Below are positions 884 to 56,609 of a stretch of 64,000 bases of DNA, in pieces. The stretch covers positions 2,520 through 66,519 of the forward strand of contig CALDDN010000003.1 in assembly GCA_937936615.1 (NCBI GenBank), given 5' to 3'. Each line of letters starts with the position of its first letter. The stretch's first letter is position 1. A model generated the notes under the pieces. It saw only the letters and a list, made by a program, of their open reading frames with translations, ran no database searches and was not told the origin of the DNA. A program made the position numbers and the translations under genes. This stretch comes from an uncultured Bacteroidia bacterium (GTDB lineage Bacteria > Bacteroidota > Bacteroidia > J057 > CALDDN01).

Positions 884-981
884 AAAAAATTTGGATTGAA
901 ATCATTTTGAAATGTATCTTGCTTAACGTTTGGTTAATACTAGCTTGTCCGATCCTTAAGATTCCAAACCCTGTTTCTCCA

Positions 982-2487
982 ATGAAAGCTTTACGCTCGC
1001 TTGCTCTTGCCGGTCTCTGTCTGCTGGGGCTGCCTCAGCTGGGTATCGCCCAACCACCACCAAAAGACGTGGACATTGCCATCAGCCCCACGCCTCTGCT
1101 GCGTTACTACCGCATTCCCTCGACCGTTCAACTGGGTCTGGCCATTAGCAACAAAGGCCAGCAGACGGTCAATTCCTTCAAAATCTACGCCTCGGTCAAC
1201 GAGGGAGATACCGTCGAAACGCCAATCAGCATCAACGGTGGCATGCCGTATAATTCCCAGCTCCGCAACCTGATCCGCGTCAACGGTGTGCCCAACATCA
1301 TGGCCGAAGGTACCTATGCCCTCAAAGTCTGGATCGGCGACATCGTTACGGTCAACAACCCCACCCAGGGCGTCGACGACATGGAACCCCGCAACAGCAC
1401 CATCGAGTGGACGATGGTCGGGGTCGATGCCCGCAGCGCTTCGAACAAAAAAGTGCTCATCGAGGAGTTCACCGGAGCCTGGTGCCAGTGGTGCCCCAGC
1501 GGGTTCGATATCATCGAAAACATGCTCGAAAAGATGCCCGACAAGTTCGTGCCGGTCATGATCCACAACCGCGATGGCATGTCCTTCCCCGACGGCGACA
1601 CCTTCACCCAGCTGTCGGGCGTTACGAGCTTTCCCAGCGGGCAGGTCGACCGCATGACCTTTGGTGCCGGCTTATCCGCGGGCAATGTGTCCATCTTCGA
1701 GCCTTTTACCCGGCTCATGCTCGATGCCTACAATCCCGTCGAATTCAAGATGACCTCCAGCTACGAGGCCAGCACCCGCCGCGCCCAGATCAACCTCGAA
1801 GCCGAGTTCATGATCGACATCGCAGGCGACATCCGCTTCAACGCCTACGTTGTCGAGGACAAGCTTACTGGGTCAGGTCCGCTGTGGGATCAGAAGAACG
1901 CCCTGAGCGGCAACCCCGCTTACCGCGACAGCCGCTACTTCTCGAAGCCCCCAACGATTGTAGGCCACGAGCACAACCACGTGCTGCGCCAGTTTTTGGG
2001 GGGCATCCTGGGCGAGAAGGGCACCCTGACCGACTCCGTGGTGAAGAAGGGTACGAAGTACACCCACACCTTTACTTTTAACCTCGATACCCGTTTCAAA
2101 GCCGACAACGTCTACTTTGTAGGCTTCGTGGCCCGCAATTCGGACAAACTCCCCGAACGGGAGGTCTACAACTGCGACGGCTTCTACACTAAGGGTTGGA
2201 ACGTCTCGGTACCCGACCGCAAGAACCTGACGATTGGTGAGGTATCGGTTTTCCCTAACCCGGCCCGCCTCGAAACGAACGTCCAGTTCGAGCTGAAGAC
2301 AAGCCAGCCCGTAAGCATCCGCCTGATGGACATCATGGGCCGCGAAATCCGGAGCGAGGAGCTGGGTCAGCAGCCCGCCGGCACGGGCATGCACAGCCTC
2401 CAGATCGGCGACCTGACGCCGGGCCAGTACCTGGTGAGCATCACGGCCGGTGGCCACACGCACCTCGAAAAACTGATCGTCCAGTAA
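982..2487 (+). CDS. T9SS-secreted thioredoxin-fold protein (Omp28-related-like) with WCxxC motif
   Basis: The internal ATG at 982 gives a classical signal peptide (MKALRSLALAGLCLLGLPQLGIAQ); the track start at 907 is an upstream extension. LIEEFTGAWCQWCPSG is a thioredoxin-like CxxC. The C-terminus (VFPNPARLETNVQFEL...GQYLVSITAGG...KLIVQ) is a type-A T9SS sorting domain. Confidence 0.75.
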   Translation: MKALRSLALAGLCLLGLPQLGIAQPPPKDVDIAISPTPLLRYYRIPSTVQLGLAISNKGQQTVNSFKIYASVNEGDTVETPISINGGMPYNSQLRNLIRVNGVPNIMAEGTYALKVWIGDIVTVNNPTQGVDDMEPRNSTIEWTMVGVDARSASNKKVLIEEFTGAWCQWCPSGFDIIENMLEKMPDKFVPVMIHNRDGMSFPDGDTFTQLSGVTSFPSGQVDRMTFGAGLSAGNVSIFEPFTRLMLDAYNPVEFKMTSSYEASTRRAQINLEAEFMIDIAGDIRFNAYVVEDKLTGSGPLWDQKNALSGNPAYRDSRYFSKPPTIVGHEHNHVLRQFLGGILGEKGTLTDSVVKKGTKYTHTFTFNLDTRFKADNVYFVGFVARNSDKLPEREVYNCDGFYTKGWNVSVPDRKNLTIGEVSVFPNPARLETNVQFELKTSQPVSIRLMDIMGREIRSEELGQQPAGTGMHSLQIGDLTPGQYLVSITAGGHTHLEKLIVQ

Positions 2488-4098: not shown

Positions 4099-7000
4099 AT
4101 GATTCAATCGACACGCCAATCAATCGGCAGGGGGCTGTTGCTGTTTTTGCTCCTGCTCTGGGGGGGAGTGGTGCAGGCCCAATTGGCCACGTTCTACCCG
4201 CTGGAACTCCGTTCCGATCCCGACGCGGCCCTCGAACAGACGGTCGGCGGTGCCACGCAGCTGACCCTCGACCGCGCCGAGCTGCTGCGCCTCTACGAAG
4301 CCGATGCCGAAGACCTGCGCGTTACGCTGCCTCTGGCCGGTGGCGGCAAGTGGGCCTTGCACCTGACGAAAGCCCGCGTCCTGACGGATGACTTCCGCCT
4401 GACCGACCACACGGGCCGTGAACTGCCCTTTGAAGCTCCGCGCACCTACCGTGGCATCGTCCACGGGCGGCCTGGGTGCTGGGTGGCGGCGTCGTTCTCT
4501 CGGGCGGGCCTGATGGCCGTGATCGTAACGCCGGAAGGGGCCTTCAACCTGGGGCCGCAGGGGGCAGCCGGCGACACCAGCGGCCGCTACGTCCTCTTCA
4601 ACGAGCGGGAACTGAAGGTGGAACTGCCCCACCGCGAATGCCAGGTCGAAGAACCGCCGCAGGACCCGCACAAAGACTTCGACCCCGACCGCGTGATGAA
4701 TGGGGCTTATTGCTACGTCATTACGAAGCTTTTCATCTGCGATTTCCAGATGTATCTGGACTTCAACCGCTCGGTACAACGGGTGGCGGACTACGTTACG
4801 GGCATGTACAACGTGGTGGCGATGATCTACGACCGCGAGGAGATCATGACGCAAATTGCGCGGATTCAGGTGTATACGGCGGCGGATCCTTTTATTAATG
4901 TTGATAACGGTCGAGATATCCTCAATCGAGCAACAGACTTGAACTTACTCAGGGAATTTCCGAATATATCCTTGGCGCATTTCATTTCCGCACGACGCTC
5001 GCTTCAAGGCTGGGGGTATTACGATGTGCTTTGCAGTCGGCCGGCTGTGCGGCTTTCGGTGGGCTTTGTTGCACCCTTCTATTCTGAGCTTCCGGTCTAC
5101 AGCTGGCCGGTTCAATATACTTCCGTTTTATTGGGATTTAATCTGGGCAGCTGGGCAACCAACGACTGCCGATGGCCCAGTGGTCCGATCGATGGCTGTG
5201 CACCTGTTGAAGGCGGAAATTGCGCTCGTCCACCCATTCCAGAGCCGCCTTTTAAAGGTACCATCATGAGCCGATGCCAGATGCTGCCCGGCATCGGCGT
5301 TGACCTGAACCTGGGTTTGGGGCCGATTCCGGGTGAACGGGTACGCTCTCGTGTGTCACGGGCTTTTTGTGAGACCCAATACCTGTGCGATTGTTTTGCA
5401 CCCCGTGTTCCGACGGTAACGACCGATTCTTCCGGAACGCGGGCGCGAGTCGAATGGATTGGCTCGCCTCGGGCCGGGAGCTTTACATTGGATTATCGGA
5501 TTCGATTCTTTGGTACCTGGACATCAGTCGGAGAAATTACTGGATACACGTATGAGCTGGAAAACTTGCAGCCAGATACAGAGTATGAGCTGCGAATAAG
5601 GGCAAACTGTTTCCCTCCTAGTAGCCGCAATCCATCGAACTGGTCGCTGATTTACTTCACAACGCCCCGCCTCGCTGCATTTTGCGAACCGGTAGCTAGG
5701 CCTCAAGTATTCACCGATTTCGTTCAAGTGACGGACGGCAGCGGCCTGAGCGATTACCGCAACAACACCAATTGCCGGTTCGAGTACCGAACGGCATCAG
5801 GACGCCCGATCGATATCGTTTTTCTGGAGTTTCAAACTGAACGGAATTACGATTTCCTGCGCGTTTACGACGGTGTGCCCGGAAGCGGAGGTATCCAATT
5901 GGGCAGCTTCAGTGGCAGTGTGCTGCCGCAAAGCCTTAGGGCCAATTCTGGGGTGGTATATCTGGAATTTACCACGGACGGTAGCATTACCTATAGCGGC
6001 TGGCGACTGCTTCTCAAAGAAATTCCCGAAGAAAACACGACTTTTTGCCAGGGCATGCAGACCTTGACAGCTGAATTTGGAAGCTTTGACGACGGCAGCG
6101 GCCCCGATGATTACGCCAACGACAGCGATTGCCAATGGCTCATCCAGCCCCAAAATGCTCAACAAATCCGCATTCAGTTTACTGAATTTCAAACCGAAGC
6201 GCGATTCGATTTCGTGTCGGTTTACGACGGTCCGACTGTCGATGCGCCTTTGCTAGGTCGGTTCAGCGGGTTCGAATTGCCACCGGTTCTGCTTACCTCG
6301 GGTCCGTCTGCGTTGGTGGTTTTTACCAGTGATCCGTCTGTAACGGCTCCGGGCTGGCGTATCAGCTATCAGGGTATCACTCGGACTGGGCGCGTCTTCT
6401 GTCGTGGGCTGCAACGCCGAACTGCGCTAGCAGATACCGTTACCGACGGCAGTGGAGCGCAGCCTTATGCGCCCAATTCCAGCTGTCGCTGGCTCATTGA
6501 GCCGGAAGGAGCGGAAGCCATCGAAATCAACTTTACAGAATTCCATACCGAAGTCGATCAAGACTATGTCGCCATTTTTGCGGGGCCATCGATTGAATCT
6601 CCATTGGTCGGAATATTTTCAGGTCAACAGCTTCCCAGACCATTGGAAATTTTCTCTACATCGGTACTAATTGTTTTTCAAACCAACGAGCTGATTCAAG
6701 AGTCTGGCTGGAAGCTCAGCTATCGGGTTTTGGAGATCGTCGAAGAATCCTTCTGCCGCGGCACCCAGCTGCGCACCGCCCTCAACGATACCATTACCGA
6801 CGGCAGCGGCACCGCCAATTACGCCAACAACAGCGATTGCCGCTGGCTCATCCAGCCGCCCAACACCCAACGCATCGTGCTGGCGATCCAAAATCTAGAC
6901 ACGGAACGCGAACGCGACGAACTGCGCATCTACGACGGCTCCGACGATACGGCTCCGCTCTTGGGCACCTTCAGCGGCAGCGTCCGCAACCAGCAGCTCA

Positions 7001-10000
7001 TCGCCACGTCGGGTGCGGCCTTCGTTGTCTTCACCTCCGATGAGCAAAACACCGCCGCCGGCTGGCAACTCAGCTACAACGCCGAGGAGATTCCCGACCC
7101 GGTCTTCTGCCGCGGCGAGCAGACCCGCACCGCTCCGACCGATACCATCACCGACGGCAGCGGCCCGTTCGATTACGGCAACAACAGCGCGTGCAGCTGG
7201 CTCATCCAGCCCGACAGCGCGTCCAACATCCGCATCACCTTCGACTCGCTGCGCACCGAACTGGGCTTCGACTTCGTAACGATTCACGACGGCCCGACGG
7301 CGCAAGCTCCCGTACTGGGCCGCTTCAGCGGGTCGAACCTGCCCGCACCTCTTGTTACGTCGCAGGGTACGGCTCTGGTGGTATTCAATTCCGATTTCTC
7401 GATTACCGATGCTGGGTTTGGCCTGCGTTATGAGGCCCTATTCAACACCGAGCCGGTCTTCTGCCGCGGCCAGCAGACCCGCACCGCCACTGCCGACACC
7501 ATTACCGATGGCAGCGGCACCGAAAACTACGGCCCCAATTCCTTCTGCCAGTGGCTGGTTCAACCTGAGGGTGCCCGTAGCATCCTACTGACGTTCGAGG
7601 CTTTCGACACGGAACGCAACCGAGATTTCGTAACCTTCTACGCCGGTTTCGACATGGAAGCTCCCCTTGTGGGTCGCTTCAGTGGCAGCGAGCTGCCCCC
7701 TATGGTGGAGGTTACGGCACCGGTCGTACTGGTGGTTTTTACATCCGACGAGCAGAACCAAGGTACCGGCTGGCAGCTCCGCTACCGCGGGGTCAGTGCC
7801 GAGCAGACGCGCTTCTGCCACGGTCAGCAGACCGTAACGGCCCGAAGTGGCGAAATCGAAGATGGCAGCGGCGGACGCCTCTACGGCCCCAACAGCGACT
7901 GCCGCTGGCTGATCGCTCCGCCGAATGCACGCTCGCTGGAATTGACCTTCCTTCAATTTGACCTCGAGGAGCAGTTCGATAACGTTTGGGTCTACGACGG
8001 CCCGACGGAAAACGACCGCCTGTTGGGCCGCTTCAGTGGAACGCAGCTGCCGCCTGTGTTGCGAACGACTGGCGGTCAGGCCCTGATCGTCTTCCGAACC
8101 GACCGCACGGTGCAGGGCCAGGGCTGGCGGCTCCGCTACGAGGGCACCTTCCCGCCCGAACCGCGGCACTGCCTGCCCCTTGACGTGCGCACCGCTGCCA
8201 GCGATACGATCACCGACGGTAGCGGGGCCAGCAACTATTTCCCCAACGTCGCCTGCCGCTGGCTCATCGCACCTGAAGGTGCAGGTAACCTGACGATCGA
8301 TTTTCTGGCTTTTGATACCGAATCGAGAGCCGATTTTGTAACGGTGTATGCTGGCTCGAATATTCAGGCACCGGTCATCGGGCGGTTTTCGGGTCGCGAA
8401 CTGCCCCCGCGCATCGTTACAGGTACGGGTACGGCTTTGATTCAGTTTGAAAGCAATGCCGCGTTCGAGCGGTCGGGCTGGGCCTTGCGCTATCAGGCTG
8501 AATTTCCTGCCTGCCGCGGTACACAAGTACATACCGCTCGCACTGATACCATCTCCGACGGCAGTGGAGCCTTGCCCTACGGCCCTAACAGCGACTGCCG
8601 CTGGCGCATTCGCCCCGACGGTGCGCGTAACGTTGTGATTCAGTTCCTGGAGTTCGATACGCAGGCCGATACCGACTTCGTGAGCCTCTACGCTGGCCCC
8701 GATGAGCGGTCGCCGCTGCTGGGCCGCTTCAGCGGACAGACGCTGCCCGAGCGCCTCGACTCGCGCAGCAACGAGGTGCTGGTCGTCTTTCGTAGCGATG
8801 CCTTTGTGCATGGGGCAGGCTGGCAGCTGCGCTACACGGGCGAAATCCCGCAGTGCAGCGGCCTGAGCGTCCGCACGGCGGCGACCGATACGATCACCGA
8901 TGGCAGCGGCACGGCCCCTTACGGCCCGCTATCGGATTGCCAGTGGCGCATCGATGTGCCCGGGGCCGATTCGCTGATCCTGACTTTTGAACGCTTCGCG
9001 ACAGCCGGTGTGGCCGATGTGCTGATCATTTTCGACGGCCCCGATGCTACGGCTCGTGTGCTGGGCCGTTTTTCGGGTACCGATCTGCCGCCCAGGCTGG
9101 TAACGAGCACCGGCCGTGCTTTCATTGCCTTTGCTACCGACCGCACGGAACACGCCGACGGCTGGCAGCTGCGTTACGAGGCGGTGTTCCCGCCGGTATT
9201 CTGCGGGGGCATCCAGACGCGGACAGCACCGACCGACACCATCACCGACGGCAGCACGCCCAACCGGAACTACGGCCCCAACTCCGACTGCCAGTGGCTC
9301 ATCAAGGTTGCGGGGGCCGATTCGCTGCGCCTCCGCTTCGACCGTTTCGCTACCGCCGATTCGGCGGATGTGCTGACGGTCTTCGATGGAACGGATGCCG
9401 ATGCCCCGATTTTGGGCCGTTTCTGGGGGCAGAATCTGCCGCCTGCCCTGACGACTTCCAGCGGACAGGCCCGCCTGCATTTTGTGAGTGATGCCCTGGG
9501 TCAGGCTAGTGGCTGGCAGCTGCGCTACGAGGCGGTGTTCCCGCCGCCGCCGCCCGTTTTCTGCCGCGACCGCCAGGTGCGTACGGCAGCCCTGGATACG
9601 ATTTCGGATGGCAGCCCCGCCGAAGAGCTTTACGGCCCGAATTCCCGCTGCGAATGGCTCATTCGCCCGACCGAACCGGTCGAGACGCTGATCCTTTCGT
9701 TTGATCGCTTCGATACGGAGGCGGTTGCCGACCGGGTACGGGTTTATGCCGGTGAAGCGGCCACCCCGATAGCCCAGCTTTTTGAGCACAGTGGCGACCG
9801 GATTCCCGAACCGGTGGTGGTTCCGGGCGGGGTGGCCCTGGTAACCTTTTCCAGTAACGGCAGCGTGGAAGGCCGAGGCTGGCAGCTGCGTTATGGCCCC
9901 GGGCCGACGGTTCGTCAGTCTGATGGAGGACGGCAGCTTCAGTTTCAGCTGTACCCCAATCCGACTACGGGTCGGGTGGGTCTGCACTTCAGCCATGCTC

Positions 10001-10188
10001 TGCGCGGCTCAGCCCGTGTCGAGGTCATCGATCTGCTGGGACGGGTGGTTGCAGTACACGACTTAGGTTCCGAAAGCCGCACGGCCGAACTCGACCTGCA
10101 GCACCTGATGCCTGGCTCTTACCTCTTCCGCATCAGTCAGGGTACCGATCTCATCGGTGTGCAAAAGCTGATCCGGATTCAGGATTGA
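4099..10188 (+). CDS. giant T9SS cargo: reprolysin-like (M12B-like) domain with substituted active-site motif + FN3 + 12 tandem CUB-like domains + type-A CTD
   Basis: The ATG at 4099 gives the signal peptide MIQSTRQSIGRGLLLFLLLLWGGVVQAQ; the track start at 3970 is an extension. The N-terminal layout resembles the propeptide and catalytic regions of Bacteroidota reprolysin-like peptidases. There is one Cys-bracketed FN3 (about 5390-5670) and 12 repeats with a CUB signature. The C-terminus is LYPNPTTGRVGLHF...GSYLFRISQG...KLIRIQD. Confidence 0.85.
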   Translation: MIQSTRQSIGRGLLLFLLLLWGGVVQAQLATFYPLELRSDPDAALEQTVGGATQLTLDRAELLRLYEADAEDLRVTLPLAGGGKWALHLTKARVLTDDFRLTDHTGRELPFEAPRTYRGIVHGRPGCWVAASFSRAGLMAVIVTPEGAFNLGPQGAAGDTSGRYVLFNERELKVELPHRECQVEEPPQDPHKDFDPDRVMNGAYCYVITKLFICDFQMYLDFNRSVQRVADYVTGMYNVVAMIYDREEIMTQIARIQVYTAADPFINVDNGRDILNRATDLNLLREFPNISLAHFISARRSLQGWGYYDVLCSRPAVRLSVGFVAPFYSELPVYSWPVQYTSVLLGFNLGSWATNDCRWPSGPIDGCAPVEGGNCARPPIPEPPFKGTIMSRCQMLPGIGVDLNLGLGPIPGERVRSRVSRAFCETQYLCDCFAPRVPTVTTDSSGTRARVEWIGSPRAGSFTLDYRIRFFGTWTSVGEITGYTYELENLQPDTEYELRIRANCFPPSSRNPSNWSLIYFTTPRLAAFCEPVARPQVFTDFVQVTDGSGLSDYRNNTNCRFEYRTASGRPIDIVFLEFQTERNYDFLRVYDGVPGSGGIQLGSFSGSVLPQSLRANSGVVYLEFTTDGSITYSGWRLLLKEIPEENTTFCQGMQTLTAEFGSFDDGSGPDDYANDSDCQWLIQPQNAQQIRIQFTEFQTEARFDFVSVYDGPTVDAPLLGRFSGFELPPVLLTSGPSALVVFTSDPSVTAPGWRISYQGITRTGRVFCRGLQRRTALADTVTDGSGAQPYAPNSSCRWLIEPEGAEAIEINFTEFHTEVDQDYVAIFAGPSIESPLVGIFSGQQLPRPLEIFSTSVLIVFQTNELIQESGWKLSYRVLEIVEESFCRGTQLRTALNDTITDGSGTANYANNSDCRWLIQPPNTQRIVLAIQNLDTERERDELRIYDGSDDTAPLLGTFSGSVRNQQLIATSGAAFVVFTSDEQNTAAGWQLSYNAEEIPDPVFCRGEQTRTAPTDTITDGSGPFDYGNNSACSWLIQPDSASNIRITFDSLRTELGFDFVTIHDGPTAQAPVLGRFSGSNLPAPLVTSQGTALVVFNSDFSITDAGFGLRYEALFNTEPVFCRGQQTRTATADTITDGSGTENYGPNSFCQWLVQPEGARSILLTFEAFDTERNRDFVTFYAGFDMEAPLVGRFSGSELPPMVEVTAPVVLVVFTSDEQNQGTGWQLRYRGVSAEQTRFCHGQQTVTARSGEIEDGSGGRLYGPNSDCRWLIAPPNARSLELTFLQFDLEEQFDNVWVYDGPTENDRLLGRFSGTQLPPVLRTTGGQALIVFRTDRTVQGQGWRLRYEGTFPPEPRHCLPLDVRTAASDTITDGSGASNYFPNVACRWLIAPEGAGNLTIDFLAFDTESRADFVTVYAGSNIQAPVIGRFSGRELPPRIVTGTGTALIQFESNAAFERSGWALRYQAEFPACRGTQVHTARTDTISDGSGALPYGPNSDCRWRIRPDGARNVVIQFLEFDTQADTDFVSLYAGPDERSPLLGRFSGQTLPERLDSRSNEVLVVFRSDAFVHGAGWQLRYTGEIPQCSGLSVRTAATDTITDGSGTAPYGPLSDCQWRIDVPGADSLILTFERFATAGVADVLIIFDGPDATARVLGRFSGTDLPPRLVTSTGRAFIAFATDRTEHADGWQLRYEAVFPPVFCGGIQTRTAPTDTITDGSTPNRNYGPNSDCQWLIKVAGADSLRLRFDRFATADSADVLTVFDGTDADAPILGRFWGQNLPPALTTSSGQARLHFVSDALGQASGWQLRYEAVFPPPPPVFCRDRQVRTAALDTISDGSPAEELYGPNSRCEWLIRPTEPVETLILSFDRFDTEAVADRVRVYAGEAATPIAQLFEHSGDRIPEPVVVPGGVALVTFSSNGSVEGRGWQLRYGPGPTVRQSDGGRQLQFQLYPNPTTGRVGLHFSHALRGSARVEVIDLLGRVVAVHDLGSESRTAELDLQHLMPGSYLFRISQGTDLIGVQKLIRIQD
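5110..5169 (+). other. position of the expected zincin HExxHxxGxxH motif, here VQYTSVLLGFNLGSWATNDC (all His/Glu replaced)
   Basis: By-eye alignment to the DYVAHEMGHQFGANHTFN-type motif of reprolysin-like peptidases keeps Y, G, G and T. It gives H->V, E->L, H->F and H->A. Confidence 0.5.
5680..9894 (+). repeat. 12 tandem CUB-like domain repeats (about 345-351 nt period) inside the 4099-10188 CDS
   Basis: The recurring pattern is FC.G.Q.RTA..DTITDGSG...Y..NS.C.W.I.P...F..F.TE...DFV.VYDG...LGRFSG..LP...ALVVF.SD...GW.L.Y. A 35/36-nt identical segment occurs at 9160-9195 and 9511-9546, a 351-nt offset. Confidence 0.8.
9934..10185 (+). other. type-A T9SS C-terminal sorting domain of the CUB protein
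   Basis: LQFQLYPNPTTGRVGLHFSH...HLMPGSYLFRISQGTDLIGVQKLIRIQD. Confidence 0.8.
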
Positions 10189-24458: not shown

Positions 24459-27400
24459 CTACAGCCCTACCCACTTGAGTACCGCCGTACGCGTTGCCGT
24501 TCGGCACATTACCACGTATACGCCTGCAGCAAGCCCCTCGATTTCCACTTGCCGTTCGGCATGGCCTTGCGTAGAGGCAGGATGTAACCGTTCGTAGACC
24601 CGTTTGCCCTGTAGGTCTGTAATCTCGATGTGTAGCTCGTCGTCGTTCCAGTCGGCAGGCAGCAGCAAGCTGAACCGCCCGGTTCCCGGATTGGGGTAGA
24701 GCTTCCATTCGCTGGTATTCCATGGGTCTGTGCCTTCCAGTTTGCCTTGGGGCGGAGTGTTGAACCAGGTCGAGCGGTTGGATGAGGTAACACCTCCGCA
24801 GGTAGTCGAGATGCTCAGCTCGTAGGAGCGTGCAGGCAGCAGGTTCTGGATCGTGTAACTGAGTTGCGGGGCCTGCACGAAGGCCGTAACACTGTTCAAT
24901 GAACTGGTTTCGCGCCAGGTCAGGCGGTAGGTCGTTGCCCCTGCTACCGACGACCAGCTCACGAACGCGCCCGTACCGAATGGCGAGACGCTAACTGAAG
25001 CAGGCGGCGTGCATGCCGGTGCCGACTGGCCGGCCGTTTCGGCGAAGTAAGGCCCCCCGAATGAGGAAACTGCCTGCCCCACGCATTCGGTACGCAGGTA
25101 GACCTCGTATCGGGTCGCCGCACTGAGGCCGGTCAGCACGACGCTGGTGGCCGGAGCAAAAACGCTAACAAAATTCCACGCGCTGGCCTGCAACGGACGG
25201 TAGTAGACCTGCCAGCTCAGTGCATTGGGCTGCTGGGGCCAGCTGACCCGCAAGCTCGTAGGCGTGATTTCGCTGAACTGAGGCACAGGAGCCACGCAGG
25301 CCGCCGGTGCCGTCGATTGCGTCGTGAACGACTGCAGGCCCGAGCCGTCCGACAGCCGTTCGCCACAGACGGCCTGCACGTACCATTGATAGGCAGTTCC
25401 AGCCTGAAGCCCCGTCAGGTTAAAGCTGGGCGAGCCAAGGACAAGAACCTGAAAATTGGCATCATCGCTGCGACGGAAAAACAGCCGGTAGGAGCTGGCT
25501 CCCGCCACATTTGCCCAGCTCAGGAAGGCCGAGCTGGCGGTAAGGTTCGAGGCCGTCAGTTGGGTAGGTGTGGCGCAGGCTGTGGCTTGGGCAATCCCCA
25601 CCTGAGCAGTTGCCTGGTTTTCACAGCCGTTGGCATCGCGCACGGCGAGGCTGTAAGTGCCCGCGAGAAGCCCCGTAAAAATCGTCTGGCTGCTAAAGGG
25701 GCCGTTTTGCAGGCGGATGAGATAGGGGGCCTGACCGCCCGACGGGCTTACCGAGAGGCTGCCGTTGGCCGATTGCGGGCTGCTGGCGGGGCTGCTGCTG
25801 ACCTGCAGCTGAGGCAGTGGCAGCACGTTGACCGGAACCGTCCGCGTACTGGTGCAGCCGTTGGCGTAGAAGCCCGTTACCGTGAACGTCTGGCTGGCTG
25901 CCGGTACAAAGGTGTAAATCGAACTGGAAGCCGAAGCCGAAAGCACGGGCGACCAAGCGTAACTTTGGGCACCGCTGGCCGTCAGGCTGACGGTGCTTCC
26001 CTGGCAGACCGTTGCGGCGATCGGCGTCAGGTTCAGCGGGCCTCCGGCATCTACCTGAATCAGAAACCAGCGCACCGTGCTGGCCGCACCGGCTGCGTTA
26101 CGGGCCGTCAGCCGCACCGAGTAAGTACCGGGATTCAAATAGGTATGGGCCGGATTGGCGATAAAGTGATCGGGTCGACCGTCGTTGTCGATATCCCATT
26201 CCCAGCTGGTGGGGTTGTTGGTGCTCAAATCGAGAAACTGCACCCGCAGCGGCGCACAGCCCCTCGTCCGGTCGACCTGAAAGTTGGGTACCGGTGGTTG
26301 CAGGCCCTCGCTGCCTTCGAGGCGGCACTGCCAGCCGGGCACGCGGCGCATGGCCTGTGTACCGCAGAGGCTGCGGCTTTCGCTGCGCTGCATGATGCTC
26401 TGCCCGCCGCCGATGTCGCTGGCAAAATTCAGCTGGCGTTGTTCCTGATTGGGGCCGATTGCAAAGTGCATGACCCGGCCCGGTGCCACGATGTGCCCCA
26501 GCTGATGCGCATGCCCCAGTTCGTGCACGGCCACGCTTTCAAAGTCAAACCGCCCCCAGGTCGGCTGGCTGGGGCCAAAATGCCAGTTGATCTGGCTGTT
26601 GAACAGGAGATCCAGATCTTTGACCTGCCAAAACAGTACATTATTGACAAAACATCCTGAGATTCGCGAGAAGGTCGCCGCCAGCACGCCTTGCGACAGC
26701 CGGCATTGGGTATCGTAATTGATCAGGTTTATTCCGTCGTCGGCCGAGCAGCTGACGCTCGCCGGCTGGTTCGACAGCGAAAAATTGACTCCCGTTCCGC
26801 ACCGCCACGTCTCCAGGGCACGCCGCAGGGCAGCCACCGCTGCCGGATTCTGGCTCAAGGCCGGCGCCATCTGGAACGAAATACCACCCTGGCCGTTCTG
26901 ATTGATCAAATCGGCTGGTGCCGATACCCCAGAAAAAAAGTTGGTATAGTTGAGCACGGCAAAGGTGATGTTGAGGTTGAACGCGCTCGTCGCCGTTTGG
27001 CCCGACGAGTTCACAACCTGTACCCGGCCCGTGCCGGCCCGACTGGGCACCACGACATCGATTCGGGTATCGCTCCAGAAGCGGATATCGGTATTGCTGG
27101 CTGAAATGAAGCCTTGACCGCCGTTATCGGCATTGGCAAAATTGACCCGACCCCAAAAGCCCGGACTTCGCCCGAAGTTGCTGCCAACAATCGTCAATAC
27201 GCTGCCCGTGCCGGCGGTTATCGTACCGGGGATCAGTGTCGTGATGACCGGTGTGGACATTGTCTGGGCGGGGTCGACCTTGAATTGCGGCTCGTGGCGG
27301 GCGGGCAGTTCCTGAATGTAGGCTGGCCGCAGCCGACAGGTTTGAGTCAGGGTCTGAATCAGCTGCGCCGGCGACTCGAACCGGTCAAAAGGCGCGACCA

Positions 27401-27833
27401 CCGAACCCGCTTCATAGTACAGAATCCCCTGACTGTAGGCCACCGGCTCGTAAACCGGCAGGTTTTGGTAGCTTCGACCCGTCGGTGCAAGCAGAAACAG
27501 ACCGCTCTGGTTCCGGCTCAGCTCGATGCCCGGTGATATTCGATGGATTTCCAGGTCGATCTGTCCGCCCGGCACAGCCAGCCAGATGCTGGTTTGCCCG
27601 CGGTTTCCTTTGAAAATAGTAGCCAGTTCCAGCTTGCCGTAAGTGTAAATCCAGTCGGATTCAGGTTCACGCAGTGCCCTGAGGTCTGAAATCCAGCCTT
27701 CGGCGATCAGGTCGGCCGCTTCGACGCGTCGGGCCAGATCGACCGGTACGAGGCTGCATTGGCCCGAAGCCTTACCAAAACATGCGAACCAAAGCCAGAG
27801 AACCAGTAAGGCAGAGGGGTACAGATGTAACAT
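24459..27833 (-). CDS. T9SS-secreted zinc metalloprotease (HELGHxxxxGH, metzincin-like) with IPT/TIG, PKD and 3 FN3 modules
   Basis: Signal peptide MLHLYPSALLVLWLWFACFGKASGQ. IPT-like segment PVITTLIPGTITAGTGSVLTIVGSNFG. Intact VAVHELGHAHQLGHIV (nt about 26490-26530). PKD-like segment CAPLRVQFLDLS...GTYSVRLTARNAAG. CTD LYPNPGTGRFSLLLP...GVYVVMC...LKWVGL. Confidence 0.85.
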   Translation of the reverse strand: MLHLYPSALLVLWLWFACFGKASGQCSLVPVDLARRVEAADLIAEGWISDLRALREPESDWIYTYGKLELATIFKGNRGQTSIWLAVPGGQIDLEIHRISPGIELSRNQSGLFLLAPTGRSYQNLPVYEPVAYSQGILYYEAGSVVAPFDRFESPAQLIQTLTQTCRLRPAYIQELPARHEPQFKVDPAQTMSTPVITTLIPGTITAGTGSVLTIVGSNFGRSPGFWGRVNFANADNGGQGFISASNTDIRFWSDTRIDVVVPSRAGTGRVQVVNSSGQTATSAFNLNITFAVLNYTNFFSGVSAPADLINQNGQGGISFQMAPALSQNPAAVAALRRALETWRCGTGVNFSLSNQPASVSCSADDGINLINYDTQCRLSQGVLAATFSRISGCFVNNVLFWQVKDLDLLFNSQINWHFGPSQPTWGRFDFESVAVHELGHAHQLGHIVAPGRVMHFAIGPNQEQRQLNFASDIGGGQSIMQRSESRSLCGTQAMRRVPGWQCRLEGSEGLQPPVPNFQVDRTRGCAPLRVQFLDLSTNNPTSWEWDIDNDGRPDHFIANPAHTYLNPGTYSVRLTARNAAGAASTVRWFLIQVDAGGPLNLTPIAATVCQGSTVSLTASGAQSYAWSPVLSASASSSIYTFVPAASQTFTVTGFYANGCTSTRTVPVNVLPLPQLQVSSSPASSPQSANGSLSVSPSGGQAPYLIRLQNGPFSSQTIFTGLLAGTYSLAVRDANGCENQATAQVGIAQATACATPTQLTASNLTASSAFLSWANVAGASSYRLFFRRSDDANFQVLVLGSPSFNLTGLQAGTAYQWYVQAVCGERLSDGSGLQSFTTQSTAPAACVAPVPQFSEITPTSLRVSWPQQPNALSWQVYYRPLQASAWNFVSVFAPATSVVLTGLSAATRYEVYLRTECVGQAVSSFGGPYFAETAGQSAPACTPPASVSVSPFGTGAFVSWSSVAGATTYRLTWRETSSLNSVTAFVQAPQLSYTIQNLLPARSYELSISTTCGGVTSSNRSTWFNTPPQGKLEGTDPWNTSEWKLYPNPGTGRFSLLLPADWNDDELHIEITDLQGKRVYERLHPASTQGHAERQVEIEGLAAGVYVVMCRTATRTAVLKWVGL
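24750..25577 (-). repeat. 3 tandem Cys-bracketed FN3-like modules in the metalloprotease gene
   Basis: The modules begin CATPTQLTASNLT..., CVAPVPQFSEITP... and CTPPASVSVSPFG.... Each has a W..V.GA..Y core and a late conserved Cys (VQAVCG, LRTECV, ISTTCG). Confidence 0.7.
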
Positions 27834-37957: not shown

Positions 37958-40900
37958 ATGCTCAAGAAAACCACCCTGCTTACGCTGCTGGTCCTGCTCT
38001 TGACTACGGCTTACGGCCAACAGCGGTCGGTTCCGTACGTGCCCGATGGTGGCAGAGTCTTTGATCATCAGCAGATGCTGATGCAAAAGCTACATCAGGA
38101 ACTAGGCGCGGAAACCGAAGCCGCCCCTGTACGGAGTGTCAACGATGGTCCGGTACGTCCTGCGACGGGCAGCCCGGCAGGTAAAACCTCCTCGTTCACG
38201 GTTCAGCCGGTCGGCAAGGCAACGAACGCTTTTACGATTATCAATAACCGCGTCAATCAGGTTTATGCCGTCGACCGTCCGGGTACGCAGAACGATTTCA
38301 TGGGCTGGATTCGCCGCCACTCGACTCTGCAGTTCGGGGGTTCGCCCGAAACGACAGCCAACGGGGTACTGCGTACAGATTTCTTTTCATCGGCTTGCCC
38401 AGGCACACCGTCCAACAACCGCTGGCAGATCGACGTCGGCCCCTTCAATCCGATTCCTTATGGCAACTCGGCCCGTGCTCGCTATCCACAAGCCACCATT
38501 CACGTACCGGAGGGCAGCGAAGACCGATTTGCCGACTACCGCCTGATCTGGACGGCTACCTGCACCGATGGCAACCGCTGGGGTAATTTGACTTGGGGCG
38601 TGGCCCGCGATCTCTGCGGCGTAGGTGTCGGTAACGCCTCGACAGCCAGTGCGTCGGCAGCCGAGCGTTCGAGCTTTGGCTTTCTGAACAACCGCCAGGA
38701 CAATCTGACTCTCATTCCGGGTGGTCTGTGCGAAGGCCGCAAAGGCGAGTTCTGGAAAATGGATGTCTGTTTCTCGGGTCCGACGGGCGGTGGTGGCCGT
38801 TATCTGGACAGCCTCTACCTGTTCAAAGGCACTCTCAACACGGCTAACAATACCATCAACTGGGTCAAGTACCGCACCTTTACCATCAACCTGTGGCGCG
38901 AGCGTTCCGGTCGCGACAACGGAAATTTCACGGGCTATATGCCCGGCGGTGCCAACATGGCCTTCTCGCCCGACGGACGTTGGGGCTGGGCAGCCGTGGC
39001 TTTTGATAACGATGAGCCGGCCAGCGAGCGTGCCTTCGAAGCTAACCCGCACTTCTGGTGGACCAATGATTTTGGCGTAACATGGAATGGCCCCATTCGC
39101 GTACCCGTCATGCAAATGAACGAAATCCGCGACAACATCCGCTTCACCTTCCGCAACGAACAGACGGGCCGTGTCGATACTTCGACGGCGATCCCCTCGC
39201 AGCTGGGTGATCATGACATTGTCGTCGACCGCAACGGCAACCCCCACTACCTGGCTGTATTCGCCAATGCTTCGTTTGCCAATCCCGTTCCGGATAGTAT
39301 CCGTTTCTTCAGTGCGGGCCGCAACGTCCTGGTCGACATCACGACCAATGATCAGGGCCGTACCTGGCAGGCTGTTCGGGTTGCAACCATCTACAAGCCA
39401 CGAGGTACGGTAGCCGGTACCAGTAATTTCAATTTTGACAACTTCATTCAGGCGGCTCGCGATCCGGAAGGCAATTTCGTATTTGCCAGCTGGGTGGATG
39501 ACACTACCGTTTCTTCGGGTGCCTTCAACATGAACCCCGATCTCTTTACCCGCGGCATCCGCGTCAGCGATGTAGCTATGACCCCTGAAGACTACACCCA
39601 GTCGCGTGACAACATTACTTATCGGGGTAAAATCTATTTCCCGACCATGGCTCCTGTTGCCTTGACGGGCACCGGCGATGGCGGTCGTTCGTTCACCCTC
39701 CCGACGGTGTTCGCCGAAATTCCGAATGGCGAGAACAATGAAACGAGCTTCAATTTCATTACCGACCGTACCCTCAACGAAGCGCAGTTCGTGCTTCCGG
39801 AAATAGACCTAGCCATCACCGAAGTTACTTCCCCGCGAACGCGGCTCTGCTTCGCTGAACAAGCCGAGGTTACGGTGCAGCTGCGCAACAACGGCACAGG
39901 ACCCATTGAAGGGCCTTTTGAGATTGCATACAGTGTCAACAATGGCGCACCGGTCGTCGAAACCATTACGCTCCCTGAGCCCATGGCTCCGGGTGCCACG
40001 ATGAACTATACTTTCACCCGCCGCGCCAACATCGCTCAAAGCGGCAACTACGAGTTTTACATCGAAACGCGGGTTTTCAACGACAACGTATTCGAGAATC
40101 ACCGCCGCCGCGTCAACGTGGTCAATTTTGGTGGAACGAACCGCGAGATTTTCTCGGCTACTACCTTGTCGGGCTGCGGTACGCTTGACATCAACACGGG
40201 CCTGGAAGGCTTTACCACGACCTGGACGCTCAATGGCCAGAACCTCCCGAATACCGGCAGTCGCCTGCTTCTGACGCAGAACGACCTGCCCGGTGGCCAG
40301 GGTACCCTGCAAATCAGTGTAACCAGTCCGGAATGTACCCCCAGCTCGCTGACCGACGAGGTCGAAGTGCGCATCAACGACATTCCCAACCTGACGGTTG
40401 CCTCGAACGCCATCTGCCAGGCCAATGCACCCCTGCGGGCTTCCATGACGACCCAGCCCAATGCCGCCTACGATTACAGCTGGACTGAAGTCGGTGGCAG
40501 CCGCAGATTCACTACCAACGATATTTCGCTCGATCGCACCGGCCGCTTCACCGCCCGCATCATCAACCGTGAGACAGGCTGCGACACCTCGGCTGTTGTC
40601 GATCTGCGGATCTGGAACATTCGGATCAACCTGCAGGCTCCGCCCCAGGTATGCGAACCGCTGGTGCTCGATCCTGACAATGAAACTACCGGCCCGGGTG
40701 TCGTCTACCGCTGGCAAGTGGACGGCAATCTGGCCTACGAGGGCACCACACCCCAGTTCTCGACCAGTGTTGATACCGGTGGCACGCGGGCCAAGACTTA
40801 CCGCGTTACGGCCCTCGACCCTCTGGGATGCAACGCCAGCAATCCGGCTACCTCGGAGGTTACAGTGGCTACTTTTACCAAGAACTTTGATGCCAACGGC

Positions 40901-41629
40901 ACTTCGCGCGACACCCTGAAGGCCGACTTCATCGGTAACTACGAAATCGGCCCCATTCCGGTACAAGTCTGCTGCTGCCGCAATCTTATTCTACGTGATG
41001 CCTCGAAGCGGGGTATGACCCCCGTAACGGGCCGTTTCTGGGTCTTCGAGGGCGATCTGGGAATCAATGCGCCGAACGCAGGTCTGCTGCGTCAGGGCGA
41101 CAAAGGCAGCCCAACAGCATCCGGCACCGAGGAAATCGTCATCCGCATCGACTGCGCCAGCCGTTACGCGACCCGAACTTATCGCGTAGTTTACACGGTG
41201 CAATCGGGACCGTGTACCGATGAGATCCGATACAATATTCAGTCGATCCGGCCCGACCGTTTCGCGCTCTGTGCATCGCCCGATGTCAGCGGTTTCCCCA
41301 ACCTGGATGCTCAGCAGAATCTGGATAATCAGGCAGGCTGGGATTCGTGCCGCGTCAGCCGCCCCGACCGCGTCAATCCGCTGCTGGGCGTGGCTCTCTA
41401 TCCCAACCCGGGTACGGGCAGCTACCAGCTGTCGCTGGCCCTGCAGCGTCCCAGCGATATCGAAGTGCTGGTCTACGATCCAAGCGGACGGATCGTGTGG
41501 ACGAAAACCGAATTTGCGGGCAACCGCCACCAAACGCCTATCGACCTGACACAGCTGCCCGCCGGCATCTACATGGTCAAGGTTCAGACTCCTGAGGGTT
41601 ACCAGACCATACGCCTGATTCAACAATAA
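37958..41629 (+). CDS. T9SS cargo with Asp-box (BNR) beta-propeller-like N-terminal region, CARDB-like and Ig-like modules
   Basis: Signal peptide MLKKTTLLTLLVLLLTTAYGQ. Two Asp-box motifs: TNDFGVTWNG (about 39061-39090) and TNDQGRTWQA (about 39341-39370). CARDB-like segment DLAITEVTSP...VTVQLRNNGTGPIEGPFEIAYSVNNG. CTD LYPNPGTGSYQLSLAL...GIYMVKVQT...IRLIQQ. Confidence 0.75.
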   Translation: MLKKTTLLTLLVLLLTTAYGQQRSVPYVPDGGRVFDHQQMLMQKLHQELGAETEAAPVRSVNDGPVRPATGSPAGKTSSFTVQPVGKATNAFTIINNRVNQVYAVDRPGTQNDFMGWIRRHSTLQFGGSPETTANGVLRTDFFSSACPGTPSNNRWQIDVGPFNPIPYGNSARARYPQATIHVPEGSEDRFADYRLIWTATCTDGNRWGNLTWGVARDLCGVGVGNASTASASAAERSSFGFLNNRQDNLTLIPGGLCEGRKGEFWKMDVCFSGPTGGGGRYLDSLYLFKGTLNTANNTINWVKYRTFTINLWRERSGRDNGNFTGYMPGGANMAFSPDGRWGWAAVAFDNDEPASERAFEANPHFWWTNDFGVTWNGPIRVPVMQMNEIRDNIRFTFRNEQTGRVDTSTAIPSQLGDHDIVVDRNGNPHYLAVFANASFANPVPDSIRFFSAGRNVLVDITTNDQGRTWQAVRVATIYKPRGTVAGTSNFNFDNFIQAARDPEGNFVFASWVDDTTVSSGAFNMNPDLFTRGIRVSDVAMTPEDYTQSRDNITYRGKIYFPTMAPVALTGTGDGGRSFTLPTVFAEIPNGENNETSFNFITDRTLNEAQFVLPEIDLAITEVTSPRTRLCFAEQAEVTVQLRNNGTGPIEGPFEIAYSVNNGAPVVETITLPEPMAPGATMNYTFTRRANIAQSGNYEFYIETRVFNDNVFENHRRRVNVVNFGGTNREIFSATTLSGCGTLDINTGLEGFTTTWTLNGQNLPNTGSRLLLTQNDLPGGQGTLQISVTSPECTPSSLTDEVEVRINDIPNLTVASNAICQANAPLRASMTTQPNAAYDYSWTEVGGSRRFTTNDISLDRTGRFTARIINRETGCDTSAVVDLRIWNIRINLQAPPQVCEPLVLDPDNETTGPGVVYRWQVDGNLAYEGTTPQFSTSVDTGGTRAKTYRVTALDPLGCNASNPATSEVTVATFTKNFDANGTSRDTLKADFIGNYEIGPIPVQVCCCRNLILRDASKRGMTPVTGRFWVFEGDLGINAPNAGLLRQGDKGSPTASGTEEIVIRIDCASRYATRTYRVVYTVQSGPCTDEIRYNIQSIRPDRFALCASPDVSGFPNLDAQQNLDNQAGWDSCRVSRPDRVNPLLGVALYPNPGTGSYQLSLALQRPSDIEVLVYDPSGRIVWTKTEFAGNRHQTPIDLTQLPAGIYMVKVQTPEGYQTIRLIQQ

Positions 41630-43917: not shown

Positions 43918-44208
43918 ATGGAAATTGACGACGCGCTGATCGACAACCTGGAGCGGCTCTGTCGGCTGCGTTTTGCAGCCGCCGACCGCGAGGCCATAAA
44001 ACAGGATTTGAGTAGGATGCTGGCTCTGGTGGACCGAATTGCTCAACTGGATACCAGCGGGGTCGATCCCCTGATTCACCTGACTCTGGAAGACAGCCAC
44101 TACCGTCCGGCTCAAGTGCCTCAGTACCTCGACCGGGCCGATGCCTTGCTCAACGCGCCTCACGCCGACAGCGATTACTTCCGGGTTCCTCGTTTTGTGG
44201 ACAAGTAA
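43918..44208 (+). CDS. gatC: Asp-tRNA(Asn)/Glu-tRNA(Gln) amidotransferase subunit C
   Basis: MEIDDALIDNLERLCRLRFAAADREAIKQDLSRMLALVDRIAQLDTSGVDPL..., 96 aa. It is embedded at the 3' end of a longer spurious track ORF (43606-44208). Confidence 0.85.
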   Translation: MEIDDALIDNLERLCRLRFAAADREAIKQDLSRMLALVDRIAQLDTSGVDPLIHLTLEDSHYRPAQVPQYLDRADALLNAPHADSDYFRVPRFVDK

Positions 44209-44216
44209 GCCTCTGC

Positions 44217-48704: not shown

Positions 48705-48712
48705 TAATTTTG
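48705..48712 (+). promoter_or_regulatory. candidate -7 box TAATTTTG upstream of the PAS mega-sensor gene
   Basis: Matches TAnnTTTG, 58 nt upstream of the ATG at 48770. No well-spaced TTG -33 element was seen. Confidence 0.3.
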
Positions 48713-48769
48713 AGAGTTTGGCACCGGCTAAGCTGGAGCCCCAGGCCTAACCGCACAATTCTAACACCT

Positions 48770-54388: not shown

Positions 54389-54469
54389 CCCCAAGGCTTC
54401 CATCGCGTATCTTAGCACGGGCATTGTCCCCTGTTGATACCCTTTCCCTGCTGGAGTCCCGCACGCATC

Positions 54470-55315
54470 ATGTTCAATCTGCCCAGTGAATATGACATCG
54501 AAATCGAACTCGATGACTTGAACAAGCTAACCGATGCCGTATTGACCAAGTACGGCTACGACTTTGGGAACTATGCCATGTCCTCGTTCAAGCGGCGGAT
54601 CATCATGGTGCTCAAAAAGCATGGTATCAAGACCGTGGAATTGCTTATTCAAAAGATATTGCATGATTCGCAATTTTTCGAGCAATTCATTCTGGATATA
54701 ACGGTTAATACGACCGAGCTATTTCGCGATCCCAGTTTTTTTCGGTATCTGCGCGAGAAGATCATTCCGGTGCTCAATACCCGACCGGAATTCAATATCT
54801 GGCACGCTGCCTGTTCTTCGGGCGAGGAAGTAATTTCGATGTCGATTCTGCTGCACGAAGAAGGGCTGCTGTCGCGGGCCAAAGTCTACGCAACCGACAT
54901 TAACCACGCGGTGCTCAAGCGGGCTGCCGAAGCCCGTTACCCTCTGCGCAATCTTGAGCTTTTCAAGCAGAACTACGAGCTGACCATGCCCAAAGGCAAG
55001 CTCGAAGACTACTACATCGTCAAAGACAATGAAATTTACTTTGATCCGGCCCTGGTATCGCATGTCAAATTCAAGCATCATGACCTGGCGGTCGATCATC
55101 ATTTTTTCAAATTCGACTTTATATTCTGCCGCAATGTCCTGATTTATTTCAATCAGGATTTGCAGAATCGTGTTTTTGAACTGCTGCACAACAGCTTGTT
55201 TCTGGGCGGTTTCCTGGCATTGGGTGCCAAGGAATCGATGGTTTGGTGTCGCATTTCAGACAAATTCGAAGTTGTCAATGAGATCGAAAAAGTCTATAAA
55301 AAGATCAAATTGTGA
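54470..55315 (+). CDS. cheR: CheR-type protein-glutamate O-methyltransferase (stand-alone)
   Basis: N-terminal helical domain (YGYDFGNYAMSSFKRRI). SAM-binding IWHAACSSGEEVISMSILL, ATDINHAVLKRAAEARYP, FDFIFCRNVLIYFNQDLQNRV. The ATG at 54470 is preferred over the track start at 54434. GC is markedly low. Confidence 0.85.
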   Translation: MFNLPSEYDIEIELDDLNKLTDAVLTKYGYDFGNYAMSSFKRRIIMVLKKHGIKTVELLIQKILHDSQFFEQFILDITVNTTELFRDPSFFRYLREKIIPVLNTRPEFNIWHAACSSGEEVISMSILLHEEGLLSRAKVYATDINHAVLKRAAEARYPLRNLELFKQNYELTMPKGKLEDYYIVKDNEIYFDPALVSHVKFKHHDLAVDHHFFKFDFIFCRNVLIYFNQDLQNRVFELLHNSLFLGGFLALGAKESMVWCRISDKFEVVNEIEKVYKKIKL

Positions 55316-55364
55316 TCAGTTTATTTGTAAATAATCTAAAAGTCAATACCTGAAACCCGCGTAG

Positions 55365-55946: not shown

Positions 55947-55956
55947 ACCTTCTCCC

Positions 55957-56550: not shown

Positions 56551-56609
56551 TGGCCGCCGGGCGTGGGATATTTCCTTATTTTTGGGCAGCCCTTATTATG
56601 CCCCTGTGT

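Follow-up and report, generated by a model that had tools for sequence, protein, structure and literature searches.

CUB domains have been treated as an animal invention. In animals they follow a peptidase head in BMP1/tolloid and ADAMTS13, and 27 of them form the tandem array of cubilin. The gene analysed here lies at positions 4099 to 10188 (plus strand) of a 64,000-nucleotide stretch of contig CALDDN010000003.1 from an uncultured Bacteroidia bacterium, the whole of which is referred to below as the window. As read from the open reading frame (ORF) list and translation, it encodes 2029 amino acids (aa) plus a stop, and its bounds are exact, with the ATG at 4099 and the stop codon at 10186-10188. 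The product, referred to as the query, consists of a probable signal peptide, a prodomain followed by a reprolysin-like domain, a single fn3 domain, 12 tandem CUBs and a sorting domain for a type IX secretion system (T9SS). This order had been claimed in an initial annotation made from the letters alone, and it was borne out by Pfam, which recognised the 12 CUBs, the fn3 and a Por_Secre_tail domain, and by NCBIfam (TIGR04183). As detailed below, the head has lost its zinc site, and the query is considered to be, with reasonable though not strong confidence, a T9SS-exported pseudo-protease fused to a CUB array, that is, a non-proteolytic, multivalent and probably Ca2+-dependent binder. Most likely it binds rather than cuts.

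Among the described systems, BMP1/tolloid proteins resemble the query in having a metzincin head and then several Ca2+-type CUBs (PMC9848320), but their head is an astacin (M12A), EGF modules are interspersed, the CUBs number at most five and the proteins are active enzymes. Among animal proteins, ADAMTS13 is the nearer analogue where an M12B head is combined with CUBs. It shares with the query the M12B head and C-terminal CUBs, two in number, of which CUB2 also lacks the second disulfide (PMC8051872), whereas it differs in being active, in carrying TSP1 repeats and a spacer before the CUBs, and in having CUBs that are without the Ca2+ motif and work through intramolecular latency. Cubilin resembles the query in its long uninterrupted array and Ca2+-loop signature and was the best sequence match among solved structures, but it has no protease-like head, keeps the second disulfide and is a peripheral-membrane receptor of animals.

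Loss of the HExxH motif with retention of the Met-turn in the same fold family (M12B) is found in the inactive animal ADAMs (ADAM2, 11, 18, 22, 23 and 32). These work by binding and not by cleavage, the surface of the metalloprotease-like domain of ADAM22/23 being the part that binds LGI1, and no bacterial inactive ADAM is listed in the review that describes them (PMC11266112). Unlike the query, these animal proteins span the membrane and carry disintegrin, Cys-rich and EGF domains but no CUBs. In bacteria, a PF00431-type CUB beside a protease is documented but rare. Examples are protease IV of P. aeruginosa, with the order Cap-CUB-S1 (bioRxiv 10.64898/2026.09.07.749839), and a subtilisin-CUB protein of Bdellovibrio, for which the role of the prokaryotic CUB was called 'not clear' (PMC2605481). 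Both differ from the query in having a single CUB on a serine protease, with no array and no T9SS, and the CUB of protease IV is moreover part of a pro-region that is removed. Each component of the query is of a known kind; the way they are put together, and the dead state in a bacterial protein, appear to be undescribed in the literature searched.

The loss of the zinc site was evident from the family alignment. The sequence VLLGFNLGSWA (aa 343-353, positions 5125 to 5157, plus strand) replaces the motif HExxHxxGxxH, so that V, L, F and A stand in the query at positions H343, E344, H347 and H353, which are invariant in 151/151 aligned relatives. The motif was also intact in every one of the 27 JGI metagenome loci that span this region. 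It is thus kept in 178/178 relatives (151 representatives plus 27 metagenome loci), including a sister protein that is 63% identical, and the query alone is dead. Pairwise alignment with the relative P0001 likewise showed that the catalytic Glu and each of the three His that would bind zinc have been replaced, and neither HExxH nor HxxEH was found anywhere in the 2029-aa protein. The initial annotation had not mentioned the absence of HExxH. In addition, the near-invariant Tyr392 (150/151) is Arg in the query and His394 (147/151) is Gln. As four catalytic and two further near-invariant active-site residues have been replaced, the head, judged from its sequence, is catalytically dead and cannot carry out zinc proteolysis. 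It should therefore be named a pseudopeptidase and not a metallopeptidase, being an M12B homologue that fails the defining catalytic motif.

Much of the remaining framework was retained. Met390-Ser391 of the Met-turn region TIMSRC (aa 388-393, positions 5260 to 5277, plus strand) are kept, as in 151/151 relatives according to the column frequencies of the family alignment, together with Trp336, Trp359, Asp365, Gly387 and the six Cys that are invariant across the family in the catalytic domain (Cys312, 357, 367, 375, 393 and 424). At the codon level, the changes from the sister to the query are CAC to GTT, GAG to TTA, CAC to TTT and CAC to GCA. All three positions differ in each codon, indicating an old, multi-step loss. 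An explanation by a sequencing error or frameshift at the motif was rejected, as the codons on both sides are conserved and stay in frame and no hidden motif occurs in other frames.

These data bear directly on the 'protease+CUB' architecture proposed in the initial annotation, if this is taken to mean a working protease. A metalloprotease targeted to its substrates by the CUB array, in a tolloid/BMP1-like or ADAMTS13-like manner, would agree with the retained fold, including the 'active-site' helix at residues 335-348, and with the intact zinc motifs of the closest relatives of the same layout, P0003 (11 CUBs), P0007 and P0009 (4 CUBs each). However, none of the four residues found in place of the invariant ones can bind zinc, the protein offers no other such motif, and Tyr392 and His394 are also lost, which makes a working protease extremely improbable.

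The fold of the head was examined with a model of aa 1-434, which reached a mean predicted local distance difference test score (pLDDT) of 87.9 and a predicted template modelling score (pTM) of 0.87. It consists of a confidently modelled beta-rich prodomain (aa 28-187, positions 4180 to 4659, plus strand) that ends near Cys181, a linker (aa 188-201, positions 4660 to 4701, plus strand) that is the sole segment with pLDDT below 50 and is taken as disordered, and an alpha/beta domain in which the helix at residues 335-348 is still present. This last part is the catalytically dead ADAM/adamalysin-like domain of M12B metzincin fold (aa 202-430, positions 4702 to 5388, plus strand), assigned by Foldseek and homology. 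The best fold match of the head was zymogen ADAM17, prodomain plus metalloproteinase, with 377-468 aligned columns over four entries and E of about 4e-15. It was followed by the snake-venom adamalysins (adamalysin II, BaP1), profragilysin-3 of B. fragilis, ADAM8 and ADAM33, and all peptidases listed in the top 50 matches were M12B-type or fragilysin. The prodomain and catalytic domain superposed jointly on zymogen ADAM17 and on profragilysin-3. Thus, the models show the N-terminal 430 residues to have the predicted prodomain-plus-catalytic fold of ADAM/adamalysin (M12B) zymogens. Identity to the ADAM/adamalysin structures in the fold-search alignments was just 11-18%, implying that the inactivation occurred independently of that of the animal ADAMs. 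The linker is the spot where active relatives would have the propeptide removed. Cys181 itself (window positions 4639-4641), at the prodomain end just ahead of the linker, was invariant in 42/42 family members, and it may be an ADAM-like cysteine switch kept despite the loss of the zinc site.

At the sequence level, an exhaustive search with the head returned 2,678 family representatives at E <= 0.001, of which 509 reached E <= 1e-30. Family members bear Reprolysin_2/3/4/5 Pfam domains, and the head is homologous to Reprolysin-annotated T9SS proteins; weak sequence matches to VAP1 and acutolysin were also obtained. The head itself stayed below the Pfam cut-offs (14.6 bits vs 22.4 for Reprolysin_3; 12.5 vs 20.8 for Reprolysin), and these sub-threshold scores come solely from profile positions upstream of the zinc site, whereas Reprolysin-family thresholds were passed by 7/7 relatives tested. 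The earlier description of a reprolysin-like region therefore holds for homology and for the zymogen fold, but not for the Pfam Reprolysin thresholds. Its label 'tolloid-like' was not upheld: no Astacin match was found with Pfam at E <= 1 for the whole protein or at E <= 10 for the head, no EGF match was obtained, and the type of the head is ADAM/adamalysin (M12B), not astacin/tolloid.

Behind the head and the fn3 spacer, the modules gave a Pfam score for CUB (PF00431) of 699.5 bits over 12 stretches, against a cut-off of 21.4 (E = 7.3e-215). Repeat units were defined by cutting at the first Cys of each module, yielding 12 units of 114-124 aa with a mean pairwise identity of 43% (range 26-65%). 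All are on the plus strand: CUB1 (aa 529-649, positions 5683 to 6045), CUB2 (aa 650-767, 6046 to 6399), CUB3 (aa 768-885, 6400 to 6753), CUB4 (aa 886-1003, 6754 to 7107), CUB5 (aa 1004-1121, 7108 to 7461), CUB6 (aa 1122-1239, 7462 to 7815), CUB7 (aa 1240-1357, 7816 to 8169), CUB8 (aa 1358-1471, 8170 to 8511), CUB9 (aa 1472-1585, 8512 to 8853), CUB10 (aa 1586-1701, 8854 to 9201), CUB11 (aa 1702-1821, 9202 to 9561) and CUB12 (aa 1822-1945, 9562 to 9933). The CUBs abut directly, with no EGF match between repeats in Pfam. Each unit has exactly two Cys, C1 and C29, which by sequence are the first CUB pair and are present in 12/12; the second pair is missing in 12/12, just as the initial annotation had stated.

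By sequence (phmmer), one repeat, CUB5, matched cubilin CUB5-8 (3kq4, E = 5.9e-31), neuropilins, PCPE-1, MASPs, TSG-6 and C1s. A model of CUB5, the repeat used for modelling, was obtained with AlphaFold2 from an alignment of the 12 repeats (mean pLDDT 94.1, pTM 0.86) and has eight strands. When it was compared with the PDB by Foldseek, the top 50 matches were all metazoan CUBs, the best being TSG-6 CUB_C with a template modelling score of 0.88 and a root-mean-square deviation of 1.4 A. No other beta-sandwich family, carbohydrate-binding module (CBM) or lectin was among these 50 matches, and no CBM or lectin family scored on the repeats in Pfam. The modules had been proposed to be CUBs, with a better fit to another beta-sandwich family as the alternative, and the repeats are true CUB domains.

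No tandem array was seen at the DNA level by Tandem Repeats Finder, which points to old and diverged repeats. A recent expansion or an assembly collapse of the array was rejected on this result, with the exception of the CUB10/11 duplication described below. A profile of the 12 repeats run against an index of 5.8 billion proteins returned nothing at E <= 1e-8, the word index being too coarse for such a query.

CUBs that bind Ca2+ lack strands beta1 and beta2 and carry acidic residues on loops L5 and L9 that form a site used for ligand binding; in cubilin, C1r/C1s/MASP and PCPE-1, these Ca2+ loops engage basic side chains of protein ligands (PMC8051872). In its strands the CUB5 model agrees with this, having eight and lacking beta1/beta2, as expected for the two four-stranded sheets specified in the same source. 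In CUB5 numbering, the corresponding residues are the triad Glu51/Asp55/Asp96 plus Tyr23. Tyr23 and Asp55 were invariant in 53/53 bacterial CUBs examined, and the full Tyr/Glu/Asp/Asp signature was found in 6/12 repeats (CUB1, 2, 4, 5, 6 and 7). The third triad position, Asp96, is Asn in CUB3, 8 and 12, whereas at the first, Glu51, CUB9 has Gln and both CUB10 and CUB11 have Ala; the triad states are equal at the orthologous positions of the sister, the Asn of CUB3 included. All the intact triads lie within CUB1-7, in the part of the array most distant from the sorting domain, and the degenerate CUB8-12 lie nearest to it, a layout that fits a binding tip on a stalk. Ca2+-dependent binding by the array is considered probable.

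The closest relative, the sister mentioned above (P0003), is a protein of 1904 aa from the Logan assembly of SRR27422813, with 63% identity to the query, the intact motif HEMGHNLGSPH and 11 CUBs. No paper mentioning this sample was found in the searchable literature. When the repeats of both proteins were compared, query CUB1-10 paired one-to-one with CUB1-10 of the sister (52-76% identity on the diagonal, about 30-50% off it), with CUB4-10 at 70-76%, and query CUB12 paired with the last CUB of the sister, its orthologue. CUB11 is 65% identical to CUB10, and its best match in the sister was CUB10 (66%), identifying it as a lineage-specific duplicate of CUB10. From this one-to-one orthology, an array of at least 11 repeats is older than the split between both proteins. 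As judged from these alignments, each repeat position is shown to have been individually maintained, and the array to be the best-conserved part with respect to the sister, the least conserved being the fn3 (39% identity).

Rates of change in both lineages were compared by a relative-rate test with P0007-P0010 as outgroups, counting the sites at which one sister departs from a state that its counterpart shares with most of the outgroups. In the catalytic domain, 30 lineage-specific changes were counted in the query against 5 in the sister (p = 2e-5). The differences were not significant in the prodomain (4 vs 7), the fn3 (7 vs 3) or CUB1 (1 vs 4). The acceleration is therefore confined to the catalytic domain, meaning that constraint was relaxed or redirected solely where catalysis was lost.

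Such an acceleration could also be expected if the gene, or at least its head, were a functionless decaying relic whose open frame and conserved CUBs reflect a recent loss. The low identity of the fn3 to that of the sister is in line with this, as is the finding of the dead motif in one sequence only. Against it, the ORF of 6,087 nt is open without frameshift, and the loss is old, with four codons changed at all three positions, and yet the six Cys, both core Trp, Asp365 and the Met-turn have been kept and the head is still modelled with confidence. Furthermore, CUB4-10 have remained close to their orthologues, with position-specific states preserved, and the query lineage has even gained a repeat (CUB11). 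A decaying relic is thus regarded as unlikely.

The distribution of this architecture was restricted. CUBs, in 1 to 11 copies, occurred in 11/150 of the nearest family representatives, with fn3 or PKD as the spacer, and in 0/29 metagenome loci, and the returned name fields of P0002, which is the NCBI/ENA database entry identical to the query and lies on an 89-kb contig, and of P0003 were empty. The initial annotation had left open that the architecture might be common and annotated in related Bacteroidota; it proved to be neither. The active CUB-bearing relatives (P0003, P0007-P0010, P0012, P0019, P0033 and P0140) carry Reprolysin_2-5, fn3 or PKD, and 1-11 CUBs, are homologous along their whole length, and all retain HExxHxxGxxH or HExxH. 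The array of the query, with 12 repeats, is the longest in the clade. A T9SS tail was found in 3/7 of the CUB-bearing relatives scanned with Pfam (P0003, P0007 and P0010). The members with a PKD spacer (P0033, P0140 and P0012) have four Cys per CUB and hence the canonical two disulfides, whereas those with an fn3 spacer (the query, P0003 and P0007-P0010) have two, indicating that the second disulfide was lost inside the clade.

No paper describing this protease+CUB clade was found in the literature searched, and the clade appears to be small, unnamed and uncharacterised. When the full protein was searched against species-representative genomes, just a weak sorting-domain match in a metagenome-assembled genome (MAG) of Flavobacteriales was obtained, and no close relative was found in a first metagenome scan. 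Bacterial CUBs were also seen in other contexts. P0004 (JGI) has four CUBs with Amidase_2 and a T9SS sorting domain, and in all four the Cys at the C29 position is replaced, the C1 column being unaligned there. P0006, from a Pseudomonadales MAG, is a DUF6701 protein with two N-terminal CUBs.

The company that the CUBs keep is relevant to the nature of the ligand, which could be a polysaccharide or other non-protein polymer, bound in the manner of a CBM array, instead of proteins. The T9SS cargo of Bacteroidota is often glycan-directed, spermadhesins and PCPE-1 bind glycans or glycosaminoglycans, and a Ca2+ site could bridge to anionic sugars. Sugar-binding proteins are also among the structural neighbours of the protease IV CUB (bioRxiv 10.64898/2026.09.07.749839). 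On the other hand, neither the family scores of the repeats nor their top 50 fold matches included a CBM or lectin, no glycoside hydrolase or polysaccharide utilization locus gene adjoins the query gene, and the CUBs accompany a protease in the active relatives, which suggests protein substrates. A polysaccharide ligand is therefore held to be possible but doubtful.

The export signals are located at both ends of the protein. A probable Sec signal peptide (aa 1-27, positions 4099 to 4179, plus strand), MIQSTRQSIGRGLLLFLLLLWGGVVQAQ, was recognised by eye only, from its basic n-region, Leu-rich core and AQ-type c-region, and coincides with a modelled helix at residues 2-27; it would likely be cut around VQA|Q, giving an N-terminal Gln. 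Between the head and the CUBs, the fn3 spacer (aa 431-528, positions 5389 to 5682, plus strand), with a Pfam match at aa 434-502 (E = 4.9e-6), has Cys430/432 and Cys504 on either side. The T9SS type A sorting domain (aa 1951-2029, positions 9949 to 10185, plus strand) was recognised by Por_Secre_tail at aa 1951-2024 (37.4 bits vs a cut-off of 27) and, in agreement, by TIGR04183 at aa 1951-2025 (34.1 bits vs 23). It sits at the extreme C-terminus, as required for T9SS type A cargo.

In the proposed mechanism, the protein would be exported via Sec and then T9SS and would afterwards either stay attached to the cell surface or be set free. A ligand would be bound by the Ca2+ loops of the distal CUBs, in the manner of cubilin, C1r/C1s/MASP and PCPE-1, and the degenerate repeats close to the sorting domain would act as a stalk. 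The dead head could provide a second binding surface, as in ADAM22/23, or be a structurally retained cap. In the active ancestral relatives, the CUBs would bring the protease to protein substrates, as in BMP1/PCPE-1, and the query lineage would have kept this targeting or recruitment and lost cleavage. A ligand-binding array had already been suggested in the initial annotation, and the evidence gathered here is consistent with that suggestion and appears to strengthen it.

Several points weigh against this interpretation. Compared with canonical CUBs, loop L5 is short by four residues, with a Glu-to-Asp spacing of 4 vs 8, because the segment with the second-disulfide Cys has been deleted, and the geometry of the site could differ; Ca2+ binding as such is deduced from sequence only. 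Neutral decay would explain the faster change of the head equally well as a new function would, and the dead motif occurs in one sequence only. Attachment to the surface and release are both known outcomes for type A sorting domains, and the sorting domain alone is compatible with either. Finally, the genomic context offers no functional clue, the neighbours being unrelated housekeeping genes.

A bolder version can be put forward quite tentatively. The query might be a bacterial equivalent of the inactive animal ADAMs, the first to be recognised, in which a metzincin head turned binding surface is fused to a Ca2+-dependent array of CUBs that serves, like cubilin, as a receptor and lets a T9SS bacterium capture a specific protein ligand, perhaps a protein of an animal or protist host, with CUBs perhaps acquired from or shared with animals. 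This extended form is considered improbable.

Regarding the surroundings of the gene, the neighbours in the window are unrelated to it and encode an Omp28 protein that ends in a sorting domain, a GT4 glycosyltransferase, a SOUL protein (on a convergent gene), a SurA-like peptidyl-prolyl isomerase, DivIVA, LpxD and PyrB. The contig with the sister gene (L002, 1-21286) has as flanks genes for a Fic-domain protein, an HmuY-like protein to which a sorting domain was weakly matched, a TonB-dependent receptor and a methyltransferase of class I, and no synteny was found between this contig and the window. Coupling in an operon was considered and rejected, given that the downstream gene is convergent, the GT4 glycosyltransferase upstream is unrelated and the neighbours of the sister gene differ. 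The gene thus looks monocistronic.

Five ORFs with T9SS sorting domains occur in the 64 kb, that of the CUB protein included, which makes the window unusually rich in T9SS cargo, and from the other four the host likely possesses a T9SS. Taken with a G+C content of about 59%, the five ORFs would point to a host resembling Bacteroidota. The four other ORFs encode the Omp28 protein (907-2487, plus strand), a protein with TIG, matrixin-like M10, PKD, three fn3 and the sorting domain (24459-27833, minus strand), a protein of 1223 aa (37958-41629, plus strand) in which the sorting domain alone was recognised, some 1,140 upstream residues having no Pfam match at E <= 1e-5, and an fn3 array of 1808 aa (56547-61973, plus strand).

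The matrixin-like, metzincin-like protein is of interest for the idea that active paralogues are regulated, or relieved by a decoy, through the dead head, which would occupy, for example, their substrates or inhibitors and be co-localised with them by the CUB array. Pseudoenzymes often regulate active cousins (PMC11266112), and this T9SS protein is encoded in the same window; however, it is the sole Pfam peptidase match in the ORFs scanned, no other CUB ORF exists within the window, and an active paralogue of the family is thus absent from these 64 kb. A decoy role is accordingly rated as very unlikely.

Elsewhere in the window, an ORF at 48710-54388 (plus strand) encodes 1892 aa with only PAS-family matches at E <= 1e-5 and no output domain recognised. 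The G+C fraction falls to 0.513 at 54001-56000, against a window average of about 0.59, and an AT skew of -0.266 was found at 44001-46000, inside the ORF of a TPR protein. No RNA genes were found in the window with Rfam.

For annotation, the consequence is that homology pipelines would call this protein a metalloprotease or leave it nameless, while it is neither an enzyme nor uninterpretable. Together with its active sister at 63% identity, it forms a natural matched pair on one CUB scaffold, a clean entry to the change from protease to pseudoenzyme. More broadly, a clade that pairs ADAM-type proteases with up to 12 CUBs bearing the Ca2+-site signature constitutes a compact system for the role of CUB domains outside animals and for their origin.

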